From an uncultured Pseudomonadota bacterium (GTDB taxonomy: Bacteria > Myxococcota_A > UBA796 > SXON01), in NCBI GenBank assembly GCA_903875225.1, contig CAIQVJ010000007.1, positions 3,802 through 67,801 of the forward strand: a DNA stretch of 64,000 bases, written 5' to 3'. This document shows, piece after piece, positions 28,858 to 35,684 of this stretch (position 1 is its first letter; the number at the start of each line of letters is the position of its first letter). The notes beneath the pieces were generated by a model. That model was not told the origin of the DNA. It saw only the letters and a program-made list of their open reading frames with translations, and ran no database searches. The position numbers were made by a program, and so were the translations under genes.

Positions 28858-28887
28858 ATGCTGACCCTCCTCGGTCGTGTCCCATGA
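28858..28887 (+). CDS. Putative leaderless uORF (MLTLLGRVP) coupled to the downstream glycosyltransferase
   Basis: TACATT(28846-51)-N6-ATG. Its TGA overlaps the downstream ATG as ATGA. Confidence 0.45.
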
Positions 28888-30326
28888 CCCGCCGATCCTG
28901 GGCCGCCTGCATCGTCGCAATCGCGATCCTGGCCATCTCGGCATGGCCATCGCTCCCCTCCATGGTCGACGACGCGTACGTCTCCCTCCGCTACGCCCGC
29001 AACCTCGGGCTTGGGAACGGCCTCGTCTACAACGCCGGGCAGCCGCCGGTGGAGGGGTACACCAACTTCCTGTGGGTCGTGTGGATGGCGCCGGGGACCC
29101 TGTTGCCGATCCACCCGTCCACCTGGGCGACCGGGTGGGGGCTGATCTTCGGTGCGGTCGGGCTGGTCGCGGCGACCGGGCTGGGCGTGGTGCTGTGCGG
29201 GCGCGGATCACGGTGGTCGCTGCTCCCTGCCGCGGTGCTCGCAGCGCTGCCGGTGTACGGGATCGCGGTGACCAACGGGCTGGAGACCGGCATGTACGTG
29301 GCGATGGTGCTGGGTGCCGCCTGGGCTGTGCTCGACCGCCGGACGCCGTGGCTCGGAGGCGTCCTGGCGGGGCTGCTCTACCTCGTGCGTCCGGAAGGGC
29401 TGGTCGCAGGCGTCGCGCTGGTGTTCGTGCCGATCTTCAGCCGCCCCCGAGCCCACCGTCCCGCAGATCTTCGGCCGCTGGCGGCGCTGCTGGCCGTGGT
29501 GGTGCCCTACTTCGTCGCGCACACGCTGTACTTCGGCACCTTCATCCCCAACACCTTCGCGGCACAAGCACGCGAGCCGTTCTTCGACATGATGAAGATG
29601 AACGCCGGGTACTTCAAGCGCTCGCAGGAGTTGTATGCCGGCGCCGTGTGCGCCTGGCTCCTCGCGGCCGTGCTCGGGCCCCGTACGGCCCCGAAGTACA
29701 CGCTGCTCGGCATCGCGGCGGTGCTCACCATCGTCTCCCTGCGCGTGTACAACTGGATGCCCGGCGCCCGGCTCTTCCTGGCGCCCATCGCGCTCACCCT
29801 CGCGGCGCTCGCCCCCTCGCTGCAGGCGCTCCGTCGCCGCCCCCGCCGCGTGCTCGCGGGCGCCCTGGCGCTCGGTACGGCGTACCTCACGCTGGGTCCG
29901 TCCCGGGCGGTGGAGACCCGCTACGATGCATACAACACCGTGCTCCCCGGCAACCCAGCCGAGCTGATGGCGCGGCGGATCGCGGCGGGGGTAGTTGTCC
30001 CCGGTTCGTGGTTGCTCGCGAGGGATGCTGGCGTGGTGCCGTACTTCGCAGGGCCCGACGTGAACGTGATCGACATCCACCCCTTCTCGCTCACCGACCC
30101 CGTCCTCACGGGAAAGCGGTTCGACGTGAACCATGTTTTGGCGGTCCATCCCACCTGGATCGTCACGACCGCAGACAGCGAGGACGAGCTCCCGACCCGG
30201 TACCTCGAGGAGCGCATCCTCCTGAGCGACCCACGGGTCCGCGACCACTTCGTCCGCGGTCCGGATGCCCGGCAGCACCACCGGCGGTGGTACGCGCTGT
30301 GGACCCGCACGGGAGCCGCACCGTAG
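28884..30326 (+). CDS. GT-C-type membrane glycosyltransferase (AftB-like arabinofuranosyl/mannosyltransferase family)
   Basis: [40 protein letters not shown]. Many TM segments. Confidence 0.8.
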
Positions 30327-30375: not shown

Positions 30376-30426
30376 TTGACGGTCCCGACGGACCATACTA
30401 AGACTCTTACGTAAGCGTGAGAGTCT
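30376..30426 (+). promoter_or_regulatory. Promoter (-35 TTGACG) with MerR-type operator palindrome AGACTCTTACG-TAAG-CGTGAGAGTCT
   Basis: 11-bp arms with 1 mismatch at 30401-30426, internal perfect palindrome CTTACGTAAG, and a second small inverted repeat GGTCC-N4-GGACC at 30381-30394. Confidence 0.75.
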
Positions 30427-30463
30427 GTTGAATCCTGACCCCCCCACCGCCGCGACCCAGCCG

Positions 30464-30946
30464 ATGAAGATCGGCGAGCTCGCGGAGCGTTCGGGAAAGA
30501 CCATCCGGACGCTGCACTTCTACGAAGAGCTCAACCTCCTCGTCCCGGTCTCTCGCACCAAGGGCGGGTTCCGGCTCTACGACGCCCAGGCGCTCGTGCG
30601 CATCGAGTGGATCGGCCGGTTGCAGGAGCTCGGATTCTCGCTGCCGGACATCCAGACGTTCCTGGCGGACCTGCATTCGCAGCCCTCCGGGCCTGCGATG
30701 ATGACCGAGCTGCGCCAGTTCTACGCCCAGAAGCTCGAGTCCACTCGCCAGCAGGTGTTTCGCCTGCGGGCTCTCGAGCTCCAGCTCCAGAACTCGATCA
30801 TGTACCTCTCGACCTGCAAGGCCTGCGCGCCCGCGACCGAGAAGACCCGCTGCCACAGTTGTGATGATGATGAACACCAGGGCAAGGAGCCGCCGATGAT
30901 GGTCGCCGCGGTCTCCCCCCACCCCACGCATTCGGAATCGGCATGA
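30464..30946 (+). CDS. MerR-family transcriptional regulator with C-terminal CxxC-x8-CxxC
   Basis: [42 protein letters not shown]...CHSC. Alternative TTG start at 30428. ATGA overlap with iscS. Confidence 0.9.
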
Positions 30947-32163
30947 AACTACCTATCTACCTTGACAATCATGCGACAACCCGTTGTGACCCTGCGGTGG
31001 TGGAGGCCATGCTCCCGTACCTCACCGAGGTGTATGGCAACGCCGGCTCCCGCAACCACGCCTTCGGCTGGGCGGCCCAGGCCGGCGTCGACACGGCGCG
31101 TGAGCAGCTCGCCGACCTGATCGGCGCGGATCCGAAGGAGATCGTCTACACCTCCGGCGCGACAGAGTCCGACAACCTCGCGGTCCTGGGGGTCGCCCGG
31201 TTCTACAAGGACAAGGGGCGGCACATCATCACGAGCAACATCGAGCACAAGGCGGTGCTCGACTCCTGCCACGCGCTCGAGAAGGAGGGCTTCGAGGTCA
31301 CGTACCTGCCCGTCGACTCACTCGGGATCATCACGCCCGCGCAGGTGGCCGAGGCCATCCGTCCGGGCACGATCCTCGTGAGCATCATGCACTCCAACAA
31401 CGAGATCGGCGTGGTGCAGGACATCGCCGCGATCGGCGCCGTGTGCCGCGAGAAGGGCGTCATCTTCCACTCCGACGCGGTGCAGTCGCTCGGCAAGGTC
31501 CCGTTCGACGTCACGACGATGAACGTCGACCTCGTGAGCATCTCCGCCCACAAGATGTACGGTCCGAAGGGCGTCGGCGCGCTCTATGTGCGCCGCGGAC
31601 GGCCGCGCATCCGGCTGGAGCCGATGATGTTCGGCGGCGGCCAGGAGCGGGGGATCCGCTCCGGCACCCATGCGGTGCACCAGATCGTGGGGCTGGGGAA
31701 GGCCGCGGAGCTCGCGAAGGCGGCGTTCACCAATGGTGAGGTGGACCGCGTGCGCGGCCTCCGTGACCGGCTCTGGAGTCGGCTCCAGGCCATCGACGAG
31801 GTGTACCTGAACGGCCCCGTGCCGGGTCCCTCCCGGTTGCCGAACAACCTGAACGCGAGCCTGGCCTATTGCGAGGGCGAGGCGATGATGATGGCGATCA
31901 AGGACCTCGCCGTCTCCTCCGGCTCGGCGTGCACCAGCGCCAGCCTCGAGCCCAGCTACGTCCTGCGGGCGCTGGGCGTGGAGGTCGAGCTGGCCCACAC
32001 CTCGATCCGCTTCGGCATCGGCCGGTTCAACACCGTCGAGGAGATCGACTACGCCGCGGAGCTCGTGGCCTCGAAGGTCACCTGGCTGCGCGACATGAGC
32101 CCGCTCTACGACCTGGTCAAGGAAGGGGTCGACCTGAAGTCGATCTCGTGGACCGCACACTAG
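30943..32163 (+). CDS. iscS: Cysteine desulfurase IscS
   Basis: [53 protein letters not shown]-terminal WTAH. Confidence 0.97.
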
Positions 32164-32198
32164 CCCCATCCGCAACTCAATTTCAGGAGAACAAGACC

Positions 32199-32615
32199 AT
32201 GGCGTACTCGAACAAGGTCATCGACCACTACGAAAACCCCCGCAACGTCGGCGTGCTCGACAAGAACGCAGACGACGTGGGCACCGGCCTCGTCGGCGCG
32301 CCCGCCTGTGGGGACGTGATGAAGCTGCAGCTGAAGATCTCGGACGAGGGCATCATCGAAGACGCCAAGTTCAAGACGTTCGGGTGCGGATCGGCCATCG
32401 CGTCGAGCTCGCTCGTCACGGAGATGGTGAAGGGCAAGAGCATCGACTACGCCGCAAGCATCAGCAACAGCACGATCGCCGAGGAGCTCAACCTGCCCCC
32501 CGTGAAGATCCACTGTTCGGTGCTCGCCGAAGACGCCATCAAGGCCGCCATCGCCGACTACCAGAAGAAGCGTGCAGCGCGCGCCGCAGTCTCCGAAGCC
32601 TCGTCGAAAACCTGA
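32199..32615 (+). CDS. iscU: Fe-S cluster scaffold IscU
   Basis: AGGAGA RBS. MAYSNKVIDHYENPRNVG, GAPACGDVM, FGCGSAIA, LPPVKIHCS. Confidence 0.97.
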   Translation: MAYSNKVIDHYENPRNVGVLDKNADDVGTGLVGAPACGDVMKLQLKISDEGIIEDAKFKTFGCGSAIASSSLVTEMVKGKSIDYAASISNSTIAEELNLPPVKIHCSVLAEDAIKAAIADYQKKRAARAAVSEASSKT

Positions 32616-32624
32616 GGTCCACCC

Positions 32625-32960
32625 ATGGCAATCCAACTCACCGACCGTGCAGTCAGCCGCATCAACGAGCTGAAGCTCAAGCGGCAGACCCCTGACCACT
32701 ACTTCCGCATCGGTGTGCGGGGCGGTGGCTGCTCGGGCCTCTCGTACTTCGTGGACTTTGCCGAGCAGGCCGATCCCAAGGACAAGCAGTTCCAATTCGG
32801 CGAGGATCAGAAGGTCACCGTCCTGATCGACCGCAAGTCCTACCTCTTCCTGAACGGCACCGAGGTGGACTGGAAGTCGGAGCTGATGAAGACCGGGTTC
32901 GAATTCAAGAACCCGATCGCTGGAAAAAGCTGTTCCTGCGGGGAGAGCTTCTCGGTGTGA
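32625..32960 (+). CDS. iscA: A-type Fe-S carrier IscA/HesB
   Basis: GGGCSG and CSCGESF motifs. Confidence 0.95.
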   Translation: MAIQLTDRAVSRINELKLKRQTPDHYFRIGVRGGGCSGLSYFVDFAEQADPKDKQFQFGEDQKVTVLIDRKSYLFLNGTEVDWKSELMKTGFEFKNPIAGKSCSCGESFSV

Positions 32961-33490
32961 GCACCTGCCGCGTGTGCCACGAGCCTGCGCTCATCGCGTG
33001 CGTGGGGTGTGGTGCGTTCCAGACCCCGCCGACGCATGTGGACCCGTTCCTGGTGCTCGGGTTGCCTCGCGCGTGGCACATCGACAAGGCGAAGCTCGAG
33101 GCCAACTATCGGGAGCTTGCACGCAAGATCCATCCGGACCGGCAGGGTGCGAAGTCCCAGGCCGACCGGAGGCTCGCGCTGCAGTGGACGGCAAACGTGA
33201 ATTTTGCACGCCGCGCGCTGCTGGACGACACCAAGCGCGCCTGGTTCCTCGCCACCGGCTCGGTCGAGCCCCCCGAGCGCGGGCTCCGGCTCTCCCCGGC
33301 CTTCCTCGCCGAGATGTTCGAGTGGAGAGAGGAGGAGGAGACCGCTCCGGGCACTTTCGCCGAGCGGGCGAGCGAGCGGGCCGCACAGATCCGTGCGGAG
33401 CTCGAGGAGATGTTCACCGCCTGGGAGGCGGGCGCTGGCGGCCTCGGGGGCGTCGAGGAGGCGCTCTCCCGGTTGAGGTATGTGAGCTGA
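32957..33490 (+). CDS. hscB: Co-chaperone HscB with N-terminal tetracysteine motif
   Basis: CxxC...CxxC, J-domain HPD motif, C-terminal LRY. Positioned after iscA. Confidence 0.85.
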   Translation: MSTCRVCHEPALIACVGCGAFQTPPTHVDPFLVLGLPRAWHIDKAKLEANYRELARKIHPDRQGAKSQADRRLALQWTANVNFARRALLDDTKRAWFLATGSVEPPERGLRLSPAFLAEMFEWREEEETAPGTFAERASERAAQIRAELEEMFTAWEAGAGGLGGVEEALSRLRYVS

Positions 33491-33506
33491 CGGAATACGG
33501 GGCGGA

Positions 33507-34979
33507 ATGCCCACTTTGGCAGCTCGTCTCGCCCGAGGTCTGGCCCGCGTGTGGAACACGCTGGAGCACGTGGTGGGGCGCACGCGGCTCCGGCTTCGGC
33601 GGCAGCAGCGAAAGATCGAGGCCGGGGCACGACAGTTGGGGCTCCAACTCCTCGACGTGATCGACGATCTCCCGTTCGTCCCCACGCTGGTCCCCATCCG
33701 CCCGGTGCACAACCAGTACTATGGCCACGGCGCCTTCATGGGCGCGGCGCCGGCCCTGCTCGCCGACGATACCTGGAGGCGGATCCTCGCCTTCCTGATG
33801 CCCGACGTGTACCTGCAGGTGGACGCCGCCCTCAAGGGGGGTGCGAGCAATGCGGCCCTGATCCCGATGTTCGAGAACAACCCGGTGATGTGCGCATTCG
33901 GCTGCTGGCAGGGGCTGCGCCGACGAAAGGGCCAGGCGCCACGGCCACTTGGCGACCTCTCGGGCATGGAGTGGGACGTGTTCGTGGACAGCGCGCAGGT
34001 GGAGGCCTGGGAGTCCGTCCCCGGCGAACCGGATGCCCCAGCCCGCGAAGCGCTCGTGGACCGGATCGTGGACCGGATGGTCATCGCGCACGCCTCCACC
34101 GCCGACACGGTGCAGGAGAGCGTGGGGGTGTGCCAGTATCCGGACGTCCGGCGCACGCCCAAGACGGCCATGGGCGGGGTCCCGGCCCCCGCTTGGATGG
34201 ATCTGTACACGCGTGCCCTCCGCCTCGCGCAGGCCGCCGATCTGCGCAAGGCCATCGACGCCATGGCAGCCGACGCGCGGACCGAGTCGGCAGAGGAATG
34301 CGAGCGCAACACGTTCCGGACCCCGATCCCCATGGCCGTGGGGGCGGCGGAATACCGGGAGATCGCCGGCCAGCGCTTCAGCGTGGTGCTGGAGATGAAG
34401 ACGCTCCGGAGCACGGCCCTGTTGCTGGCGGCCATGGTGCGCGCGCTCAACCGGCGAGGCGTACACGTGGCGGCGGTCTGCTCGTTCCAGATCGCCGAAG
34501 TGCGCGGGGTCAGCCAGCAGTCCCAGATGGACGGGCTGCCGGGACCGAGGGAGATCCTGTTCTTTCACTACGCCGGGGATCTTCAGCACGCGTGCGACCA
34601 GGGCGATCTGGCCCCGGGCCAGGGCGTGCTCTTCAACGGCGCCACGCTCCTGCGCTACGCGGAGGGAGCCGCGCGGCCCTACGAGATCGAGGACGACGTG
34701 ATCGTCGAGCTTGGCGAGTACCGCGATCGGTTCGGGATCGACATCGGCATCTACGTGCAGGAGGGCGACTGCGATGCGCTGGCGGCCGGCGCCCTCTCCG
34801 AGATGGTCGCGGCGAATGCGCAGACCTTCACGCTGGGGTTCGCCTGGGGTGGGCTCCTGGACGAGGCGCACGTGCAGCCCGACGGCACGGATCGGCGGGG
34901 GCTCGGCAGTCAGGCGATGCTCGGCGTGATCGGGCGCGCGCGCGACTGGCGGCGGCCGGCCGGGCACCCCGGAGCCTGA
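33507..34979 (+). CDS. Hypothetical protein (490 aa), possibly a PLC/GDPD-like TIM barrel
   Basis: Long ORF with strong GC3 bias. VIAH...VVLEMK pattern is only weakly GDPD-like. Confidence 0.65.
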   Translation: MPTLAARLARGLARVWNTLEHVVGRTRLRLRRQQRKIEAGARQLGLQLLDVIDDLPFVPTLVPIRPVHNQYYGHGAFMGAAPALLADDTWRRILAFLMPDVYLQVDAALKGGASNAALIPMFENNPVMCAFGCWQGLRRRKGQAPRPLGDLSGMEWDVFVDSAQVEAWESVPGEPDAPAREALVDRIVDRMVIAHASTADTVQESVGVCQYPDVRRTPKTAMGGVPAPAWMDLYTRALRLAQAADLRKAIDAMAADARTESAEECERNTFRTPIPMAVGAAEYREIAGQRFSVVLEMKTLRSTALLLAAMVRALNRRGVHVAAVCSFQIAEVRGVSQQSQMDGLPGPREILFFHYAGDLQHACDQGDLAPGQGVLFNGATLLRYAEGAARPYEIEDDVIVELGEYRDRFGIDIGIYVQEGDCDALAAGALSEMVAANAQTFTLGFAWGGLLDEAHVQPDGTDRRGLGSQAMLGVIGRARDWRRPAGHPGA

Positions 34980-35045
34980 TCCGCTCGGGGCGAGCACTTG
35001 ACCGTCGGCTCGCCCGTGTGAAAAGCGCGCAGGACGGAGAGCCAC

Positions 35046-35684
35046 GTGAAGATCGAGATCTGGTCGGACATCATCTGCCCCTGGTGCGGCATCGGCCAGC
35101 ACCGCCTGGACACCGCGCTCGCGGCGTTCGAGCACCGCGCGGAGGTGCAGGTCGTGCACCGGTCGTTCCAGCTGGATCCCTCGTTTCCGATGGGCACGAC
35201 GCAGCCGGTGTCCGAGCTCCTGCGCTCGAAGTACGGCATGACCGAGGCTCAACTGGCCGCCTCCACGCACCGGATCACGGCGTTGGCCGCCGCAGAGGGG
35301 ATGGTCCCCTACAAGGTGGGCGAGAACTCGGTCGGCAACACCCGCATGGCGCATGAGCTGCTCGCCTTCGCCGCGGAGCAGGGGCTCGAGGACGCTGCAT
35401 GGAAGCGGCTCTACCGCGCCTACTTCGGCGAAGGACGGTCGGTCTTCGACCTTGACGCGCTCGTCGCCCTCGCGGCGGAGATCGGGCTCGACCCGGGTGC
35501 CACCCGCGAGGCGCTCACGTCGGGGCGGTACATCGCGAAGGTGGAGGCCGACGGGCGCGGGGCCCGGGCCCTGGGGGCCACCGGGGTGCCGTTCGTCGTG
35601 GTGGACGGTCGGTACGGCATCGCGGGCGCCCAGCCGGTCGCGGTATTCAAGGACGCGCTGCAGCAGGCCTGGCGCGACCGCTGA
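35046..35684 (+). CDS. DsbA-family (FrnE-like) oxidoreductase
   Basis: KIEIWSDIICPWCGIG, SFQLDP, GVPF, GAQP. Confidence 0.92.
   Translation: MKIEIWSDIICPWCGIGQHRLDTALAAFEHRAEVQVVHRSFQLDPSFPMGTTQPVSELLRSKYGMTEAQLAASTHRITALAAAEGMVPYKVGENSVGNTRMAHELLAFAAEQGLEDAAWKRLYRAYFGEGRSVFDLDALVALAAEIGLDPGATREALTSGRYIAKVEADGRGARALGATGVPFVVVDGRYGIAGAQPVAVFKDALQQAWRDR

Follow-up and report, generated by a model that had tools for sequence, protein, structure and literature searches.

A 64,000-nucleotide stretch of DNA from an uncultured bacterium of the Myxococcota_A lineage (assembly GCA_903875225.1, contig CAIQVJ010000007.1, positions 3,802 to 67,801), here called the window, contains an operon for ISC, a system that assembles iron-sulfur (Fe-S) clusters. 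The operon is headed by a gene for a MerR-family regulator with four clustered cysteines, and a palindrome that is a candidate operator lies directly upstream of this gene. The features of the locus are listed below by position in the window.

30376-30381, plus strand: -35 hexamer TTGACG of the predicted isc promoter, read directly from the sequence and conserved across isc upstream regions
30399-30404, plus strand: -10-like hexamer TAAGAC, predicted from consensus and conservation; TATAAC in most relatives
30401-30426, no strand: putative operator, a 26-bp imperfect palindrome with arms at 30401-30411 and 30416-30426 and a 4-nt centre
30403-30424, no strand: conserved 22-bp operator core ACTCTTACGTAAGCGTGAGAGT, recognized by cross-genome conservation and weight matrix
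30464-30946, plus strand: gene for the MerR-family regulator, 160 amino acids, starting with ATG (MKIGELA...); Pfam MerR_1, MerR and MerR-DNA-bind
30943-32163, plus strand: iscS, cysteine desulfurase (NCBIfam NF010611 IscS, 647 bits against a cut-off of 548)
32196-32615, plus strand: iscU, scaffold (TIGR01999, 223 bits against 192)
32625-32960, plus strand: iscA-type gene for an A-type carrier (TIGR00049, 111.5 bits against 58.8; Pfam Fe-S_biosyn)
32957-33490, plus strand: hscB, co-chaperone (Pfam DnaJ and HSCB_C; below the cut-offs of the NCBIfam HscB models)

The gene order is merR-iscS-iscU-iscA-hscB, and every assignment is confirmed by Pfam or NCBIfam. The TGA stop codon of merR overlaps the ATG of iscS (ATGA, 30943-30946). 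An original prediction, made from the sequence alone, had placed a MerR gene with this coupling at the head of iscS-iscU-iscA-hscB, and both the sequence read and the list of open reading frames (ORFs) bear it out. An in-frame TTG at 30428 is a possible alternative start of merR; homologues begin at M[KR]IGEL.

The regulator is a MerR-family protein, with an N-terminal winged helix-turn-helix followed by a long dimerisation helix (PF13411, 58.9 bits against a cut-off of 21.6; PF00376, 46.5 bits; PF09278, 37.2 bits). It has no match to PF02082, the Rrf2 family of IscR. Its cysteines form the motif C118-x2-C121-x8-C130-x2-C133 (residues 118-133). The protein had been described as ending in C-x2-C-x8-C-x2-C; the motif stands, but it is not terminal, as 27 more residues follow it. 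All four cysteines are invariant in 38 of 38 aligned homologues, so the conservation on which the original prediction depended is upheld, and H138, P144, V147, A148 and A149 are invariant or nearly so in the same alignment. The conserved tail has the pattern P-x-[LM]-V-A-A-V; an HscA-binding peptide of the LPPVK kind was considered there and is not claimed. These 38 sequences are our selection from the best 120 of 291 homologues that a word-indexed search returned at E <= 1e-3; the best 120 are 55-90% identical. Names, where the homologues have any, are limited to 'MerR family' and 'copper efflux regulator'.

When 1.84 billion representative sequences were searched with a profile, 41,506 MerR-family proteins came back at E <= 1e-3 and only 159 at E <= 1e-30, and the latter, which correspond approximately to clusters at 50% identity, therefore form a discrete clade. 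The pattern C-x1-3-C-x7-11-C-x2-C occurs in 112 of the best 150 of these 159 representatives, 58 of them with exactly the x2/x8/x2 spacing, and the other 38 are mostly fragments ending before the motif, frameshifted sequences or proteins with other spacings. The regulator of the window falls below the cut-off of every named MerR subfamily in NCBIfam. Among the heavy-metal equivalogs, it misses ZntR (NF007069, 62.1 bits against 143), TIGR02051 (58.9 against 150.85), TIGR02047 (56.1 against 151.45), TIGR02043 (55.7 against 167.95) and TIGR02044 (51.9 against 147.4); by name, it scores 59 against 151 for MerR, 56 against 151 for CadR/PbrR and 52 against 147 for CueR. Nor does it belong to SoxR (TIGR01950, 47.6 bits against 116.9) or HspR (NF047375, 25.8 bits against 105).

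The closest solved structures in a profile search of the PDB are those of MerR, PbrR, MtaN, TipAN, CueR and CadR, and no solved chain in that search aligns past the end of the dimerisation helix, at about profile position 126. An AlphaFold2 model built from the 38-row alignment gives helices at residues 3-71 and a long helix at residues 76-115, with predicted local distance difference test (pLDDT) values above 93, and the first CxxC begins three residues past this long helix. Judged by where the structure alignments end, the predicted cysteine loop is at the position in which the ligands of CueR and SoxR are bound. A search of the ESM Atlas returned generic MerR clusters only.

The linkage of merR and iscS was surveyed with one genome per species, which returned 80 loci. 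In all 20 orthologous loci (full-length matches, 44-86% identity), iscS is directly downstream of merR; next come iscU and iscA at 19 of these loci and hscB at 18, and the misses are cuts at contig ends. Every hit of the analysis is a metagenome-assembled genome, and those of the 20 loci are labelled Myxococcota, 'Deltaproteobacteria' or variously. Among the datasets listed as containing the locus of the window, all are DNA metagenomes of lake water or freshwater and none is RNA. The remaining 60 of the 80 loci encode different MerR proteins, whose matches fall mostly within the N-terminal domain. Among these 60 are two loci from Acidobacteriota (L022 and L062, 27-31% identity) in which merR likewise stands before iscS and C-x2-C-x8-C-x2-C is retained. 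Three Acidobacteriota loci have the merR-iscS linkage (L022, L062/L186 and L185, ~27-31% identity), and in a sample of 121 Acidobacteriota genomes there are matches at 1e-20 in 6, with a four-cysteine MerR beside isc genes in 2 (G228 and G343).

A sample of 201 genomes of the phylum contains the orthologue in 48. Its distribution by family is uneven: it is present in some families, for example in 15 of 15 genomes of f13, and was not found in others of the sample (0/13, 0/19, 0/18, 0/13, 0/11 and 0/11). A further set comprises 20 places in 19 genomes from other orders of the phylum. There, iscS follows merR in 17 of 20, and the four cysteines are present in all 20, two of them with C-x3-C. The neighbourhood survey that had been proposed as a check thus upholds the linkage, which is seen at every one of the 20 orthologous loci and at 17 of the 20 from other orders. 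The three remaining places, without isc neighbours, look like paralogues. Second copies of the four-cysteine MerR in genomes of family f37 (L202, L209 and L210) have no isc genes within ~2 kb downstream, and each of these copies has an operator-like site upstream (23-34 bits).

The near-perfect 26-bp palindrome that had been noticed upstream of merR is indeed present at 30401-30426, with arms complementary at 10 of 11 positions. Within the window, a pattern of two 7-nt arms with at most two mismatches matches once, where 0.08 matches are expected, and at least one match occurs in 8 of 100 shuffled windows. The palindrome is only mildly unusual by this measure, and the case for an operator therefore rests on cross-genome comparison. 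The 22-bp consensus ACYCTnACGTnnACGTnAGRGT is matched at >=17 of 18 positions in 17 of 21 merR upstream regions (the window and the 20 orthologous loci) and at 14-16 positions in the other four, and some of these regions carry two sites. With at most one mismatch allowed, 41 related genomes contain 37 sites in 31 genomes; the reversed pattern has no match in the same 41. As identified by tblastn, 31 of the 37 sites are upstream of merR-iscS and 4 are upstream of cysM orthologues; the other two are before a gene of the CRP family and inside unannotated ORFs, respectively. A symmetrised weight matrix built from 43 isc sites detects a site of >=22 bits in 19 of the 20 loci from other orders, which are outside its training set.

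The site before the CRP-family gene (within L112, G025:C50, 2001-2776) matches the consensus at 17 of 18 positions and lies 9 nt past a TTGACA-17-TACATA promoter. The regulator encoded behind it is a cysteine-free CRP-family protein, whose gene may additionally belong to the regulon there. The site inside ORFs (L101, G015:C8, 16 of 18 positions) is in long ones that have no Pfam match and has no merR nearby, and it was discarded as probably due to chance.

The predicted isc promoter of the window has a 17-nt spacer between TTGACG and TAAGAC. The palindrome starts inside the -10 hexamer, and the last two nucleotides of TAAGAC are the first two of the operator core. The overlap of the palindrome with the -10 of a TTGACG promoter, part of the original prediction, is thus confirmed by the sequence read, and the pattern is conserved in relatives. 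It is this conservation, far stronger than the within-window statistics, that supports the promoter. Among 44 non-redundant isc upstream regions, 23 (including the window) conform to TTGACN-17-TAnnA[CA], with a spacer of 18 in one, and have the 2-nt overlap with the operator core. Another 11 conform to TTGACA-17-TAnnnn (TTGCCA in one, a spacer of 16 in one) with the operator 3-19 nt downstream of the -10, and the geometry of the remaining 10 is ambiguous. An operator centred in a 19-20-bp spacer, as in heavy-metal sensors, occurs in none of the 44. The hscA promoter discussed below has a conserved TTGcCC-17-TACGTG with the -10 inside the operator.

The centre of the operator consequently has no fixed position; it ranges from about -6 (hscA) through about +3 (isc) to beyond +10 (other clades). 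DNA-realigning activation is the usual mode of the MerR family (PMC9909328). A near-consensus promoter with a 17-bp spacer, combined with an operator centre that drifts, leads one to expect a repressor rather than an activator that realigns DNA. As the operator lies on the -10 or past it, at promoters with a 17-bp spacer, the earlier view that it does not sit in an activator's position is upheld. From these predicted promoters, the regulator probably represses isc transcription.

A scan of the 7.19-Mb genome to which the window belongs, by using the weight matrix, found only three sites above 12 bits (35.2, 34.4 and 26.9), and the reversed genome contains none above 12 bits. The 34.4-bit site is the isc operator of the window. 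The 26.9-bit site is upstream of hscA, 9 nt from its start codon; the identity of this gene is given by two HscA models, both above their cut-offs (774 bits against 620, and 756 bits); the gene that follows this detached hscA encodes an ISC-type ferredoxin (85 bits, below the model cut-off). The 35.2-bit site is 84 nt upstream of cysM, which is followed by genes for a JAB/Mec-like peptidase, a ThiS-family carrier and a ThiF-rhodanese protein, an arrangement like that of a cysM-mec-cysO-moeZ operon. We take this make-up to be that of the CysO-thiocarboxylate route to cysteine known from mycobacteria, and cysteine to be the sulfur source of IscS. A regulon scan with the palindrome, proposed with the original prediction, thus returned hscA-fdx and a cysteine-synthesis operon besides isc. 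As with IscR, the gene of the regulator is part of the isc operon, and predicted sites for it are found before isc and before further genes of Fe-S assembly.

Most relatives have hscA-fdx immediately behind hscB; in the genus of the window, it is detached in all five genomes. All five detached hscA copies have their own operator-like site (26.9, 18.0, 21.2, 28.4 and 28.0 bits). At loci where hscB and hscA are adjacent, no site above 10 bits occurs in any of 23; two further loci are cut by contig ends. Because only detached hscA copies have a site, the operator marks the starts of ISC transcription units. The cysM operon is, on sequence evidence, a predicted accessory member of the regulon. As a universal member cysM is ruled out, because the site occurs in 4 of 30 orthologues only.

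Two observations concern the surroundings of these additional sites. The cysM operon is outside the window, at G000:C108 ~92659-95412 (minus strand in L117, 2659-5413), and is divergent from a mevalonate-diphosphate-decarboxylase-like gene, with the operator between the two. The motif CTACCGAAC (variants ACCGAAC) is found ~25-35 nt upstream of the predicted hscA -35 in 5 of 5 genomes of the genus (L125-L129) and also near two cysM sites (L155 and L173), and it may be a second regulatory element.

The genome, which is 94.8% complete, has no match to Rrf2 proteins and none to SufB/D, and 14 of 14 control genomes matched in both searches. This leaves ISC as the one system for Fe-S assembly found in this genome, and the four-cysteine MerR as the only candidate isc regulator in view. 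In the 201-genome sample, 20 genomes lack Rrf2, and 18 of these carry the four-cysteine MerR. The MerR is present in 30 of the 181 genomes with Rrf2, and 151 of the 153 genomes without the MerR have Rrf2. This anticorrelation of MerR and Rrf2 is a tendency among kin, which are not independent.

We are highly confident that the MerR protein would prove to be a transcription factor of the ISC regulon acting through the palindrome. The reading that we favour goes further, with a probability somewhat above even: the MerR dimer would be a dedicated, Fe-S-sensing factor that feeds back on the ISC regulon as IscR does. In this model, a dimer binds the 22-bp consensus at the isc, hscA-fdx and cysM promoters. 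Since the operator coincides with the -10/+1 region of a promoter of optimal spacing, or lies just downstream, its occupancy would most likely result in simple repression with no untwisting of DNA. The four cysteines after the dimerisation helix would ligate an Fe-S cluster delivered by the ISC machinery; that their ligand is such a cluster has, in our estimate, slightly better than an even chance. When Fe-S supply is sufficient, the holo-protein would repress, and loss of the cluster through Fe-S demand, oxidants or a shortage of iron or sulfur would lead to derepression. The result would be an IscR-like feedback loop on a different fold, a loop that is proposed because the regulator is co-transcribed with the machinery, would control that machinery, and has four invariant thiolates at the place of the 2Fe-2S cluster of SoxR. 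The interpretation of the original prediction, that of an analogue of IscR, is thus supported by what the sequences suggest.

Perhaps a MerR metal sensor like ZntR gained a four-cysteine Fe-S site, lost activation by distortion and became a repressor that occludes the promoter. If so, this would be the third independent circuit, after IscR and SufR, in which an assembly machinery loads its own repressor. In lineages with neither IscR nor SUF, the four-cysteine MerR would be alone in regulating the one Fe-S assembly system found, and its operator would move along with the transcription unit at each split of the operon. We offer this idea tentatively and consider the chance that it is correct to be just short of even.

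Several results weigh against an Fe-S-sensing, IscR-like repressor. Some Rrf2 protein is retained in 30 of the 48 MerR-positive genomes. In five MerR-negative genomes of the phylum, no Rrf2 gene is present in the 1.5 kb upstream of the iscS homologue, where the neighbours encode short-chain dehydrogenases/reductases (SDRs), a methyltransferase, or ORFs without a Pfam match. These five genomes also qualify the statement that ISC operons are normally led by IscR, which is a proteobacterial norm that they do not bear out for this phylum, and they leave the idea that the MerR replaced an ancestral IscR unsupported. The cysM site, which is always 84-95 nt upstream of the start, is found in so few orthologues. 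A generic consensus promoter scanner reported no site at the isc promoter, and the promoters in the 44 regions were themselves predicted by consensus. The cysteine region of the AlphaFold2 model (residues 118-140) has low confidence, with pLDDT of ~51-74. In addition, the related genomes are kin, and counts across them are not independent.

Three further points against an Fe-S cluster also bear on an alternative in which regulator, operator and regulon are the same and the cysteines hold a structural or redox-labile Zn(II). Oxidation of the thiols, or a disulfide, would then release the protein from DNA, and the ISC and cysteine genes would be induced by oxidative or thiol stress. The CxxC-x8-CxxC motif is compact, consists of four cysteines only, and is also typical of Zn(Cys)4 sites. 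A similar tetracysteine module is encoded in the same operon at the N terminus of HscB (CRVC-x7-CVGC, at the start of hscB, 32957-33040); across the 20 orthologous loci and L062, 18 of 19 orthologues have it as C-x2-C-x7/8-C-x2-C, and its spacing puts it in one class with the tail of the regulator. We presume that this module, unusual for bacteria, resembles the N-domain of mitochondrial HscB, which binds zinc. Moreover, distant MerR proteins (~29-32% identity; L030, L037 and L051) keep C-x2-C-x8-C-x2-C beside unrelated genes, namely GTP cyclohydrolase I (folE) with an SDR gene, genes for HEAT/HD proteins, and methyltransferase genes near conjugation genes, so the cysteine module is not specific to ISC. 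The cysM-mec-cysO pathway is linked to oxidative stress in mycobacteria. However, with a regulon that comprises the ISC machinery and no IscR or SUF found, feedback from Fe-S occupancy is the more economical explanation, and the alignment ends and the AlphaFold2 model suggest that the cysteine loop occupies the position of the SoxR 2Fe-2S cluster. We regard a zinc or thiol switch as unlikely, though deserving of serious consideration.

The best profile matches, ZntR, MerR, CadR/PbrR and CueR, and the structures of these proteins might instead suggest a mononuclear metal sensor of the ZntR/CueR/CadR kind, for example one for Fe(II), that sets isc expression by metal availability. The 22-bp palindrome also has ACTCT/AGAGT-type arms, which we assume to resemble operators of the heavy-metal MerR subfamily. 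However, the scores for all these models (47-62 bits, with cut-offs of 117-168) fall far short, the regulon in the window's own genome contains no efflux or metal-resistance gene, and the operator is not in a long spacer. A sensor of this kind is quite improbable. Only a little less probable still is a classical MerR mechanism, the usual one in the family (PMC9909328), in which the protein stays bound, activates isc by distorting DNA upon a signal and otherwise represses weakly. Family membership favours it, as does one locus (L020) where the operator fills the 17-bp spacer and the -10. Yet the -35 is near consensus and the spacer is 17 bp (one 16 and one 18 among 34 clear loci), so no realignment is needed, and the drifting operator centre is typical of repressors rather than of activators that depend on the helix face. 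Finally, the cysteines might be persulfidated or bridged by sulfane sulfur that IscS mobilises, which would tune cysteine desulfuration and cysteine synthesis. Such a sensor would fit a regulon that, in 4 genomes, couples a cysteine desulfurase to an operon for thiocarboxylate-dependent cysteine synthesis. It is highly improbable, because 26 of 30 cysM orthologues lack the site, and hscA-fdx and iscU/iscA point to cluster assembly beyond sulfur trafficking.

Upstream of the operon is a gene for a 480-residue protein (28884-30326, plus strand) without a Pfam match that resembles, by eye, a multi-pass membrane protein. A 490-residue ORF (33507-34979, plus strand) starts 17 nt past hscB, where other genera keep hscA-fdx, and is overlapped by a minus-strand ORF of 646 residues (33414-35354). 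The 490-residue ORF has no Pfam match and no homologue in the 80 merR loci scanned or the rest of the genome, and it may be lineage-specific or spurious. Farther downstream is a gene for a DsbA-like thioredoxin-fold protein (PF01323, 135 bits; 35046-35684, plus strand).

The control of Fe-S assembly is understood almost only through IscR, of the Rrf2 family, and SufR. No MerR-type regulator of isc genes is described in the full-text literature that was searched, a scope that most subscription journals fall outside. With its own ligand motif, operator, regulon and presumed repressor mode, the four-cysteine clade is, as far as sequence comparison can define one, a new MerR subfamily. If the proposed model is true, a further family of regulators is added for IscR-less lineages; it comprises ~159 clusters at 50% identity, has a defined operator and regulon, and occurs in about a quarter of the Myxococcota genomes sampled (48 of 201) and sporadically in Acidobacteriota. 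It would also be only the second sensor of the Fe-S type, besides SoxR, that has a MerR fold, and would clearly exemplify the conversion of a MerR metal sensor into a simple repressor. With the operator, the regulon and the four residues that may act as ligands all defined, the hypothesis is directly testable, and it provides a basis for naming genes that are now labelled 'MerR family' or 'copper efflux regulator'.

Among the closest known systems, IscR resembles the MerR regulator in circuit design. Both regulators are encoded by the first gene of an isc operon, have a cysteine-rich sensor site and are autoregulated through an operator that overlaps the promoter, these features being predicted for the MerR protein, and the regulon of each contains iscSUA, hscBA and fdx. 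In contrast, the MerR fold is unrelated to Rrf2, and only MerR domains were found in the regulator of the window. IscR ligates its cluster with three cysteines and a histidine, versus four cysteines here, and, unlike IscR, the MerR regulator has a single type of palindromic site and no suf operon was found for it to activate. SufR, a cysteine-ligated sensor that is encoded beside the suf operon for Fe-S assembly in cyanobacteria and actinobacteria and represses it, is a functional analogue from a different protein family, and it serves the SUF system rather than ISC.

SoxR is a MerR-family protein with a 2Fe-2S cluster and has its ligand cysteines in one short loop directly after the dimerisation helix, as the candidate ligands are here. 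However, the cysteine spacing of SoxR is C-x2-C-x-C-x5-C, in contrast to C-x2-C-x8-C-x2-C, and the regulator studied here differs further in that its operator is outside a long spacer and its predicted targets are ISC genes rather than soxS or efflux genes. ZntR, CadR-PbrR, CueR and MerR provide the best-scoring profiles and solved structures, and the outer arms of the 22-bp operator are presumably similar to those of heavy-metal-sensor operators, whereas the ligand pattern, the repressor-like position of the operator and a regulon without metal-resistance targets set the new regulator apart. HspR and CarH/LitR are MerR-fold repressors that occupy promoter-proximal palindromes. Their effector domains differ from the four-cysteine loop, as HspR is co-repressed by DnaK and CarH/LitR binds B12, and in contrast to the HspR system, the regulated Hsp70 here is HscA, not DnaK.

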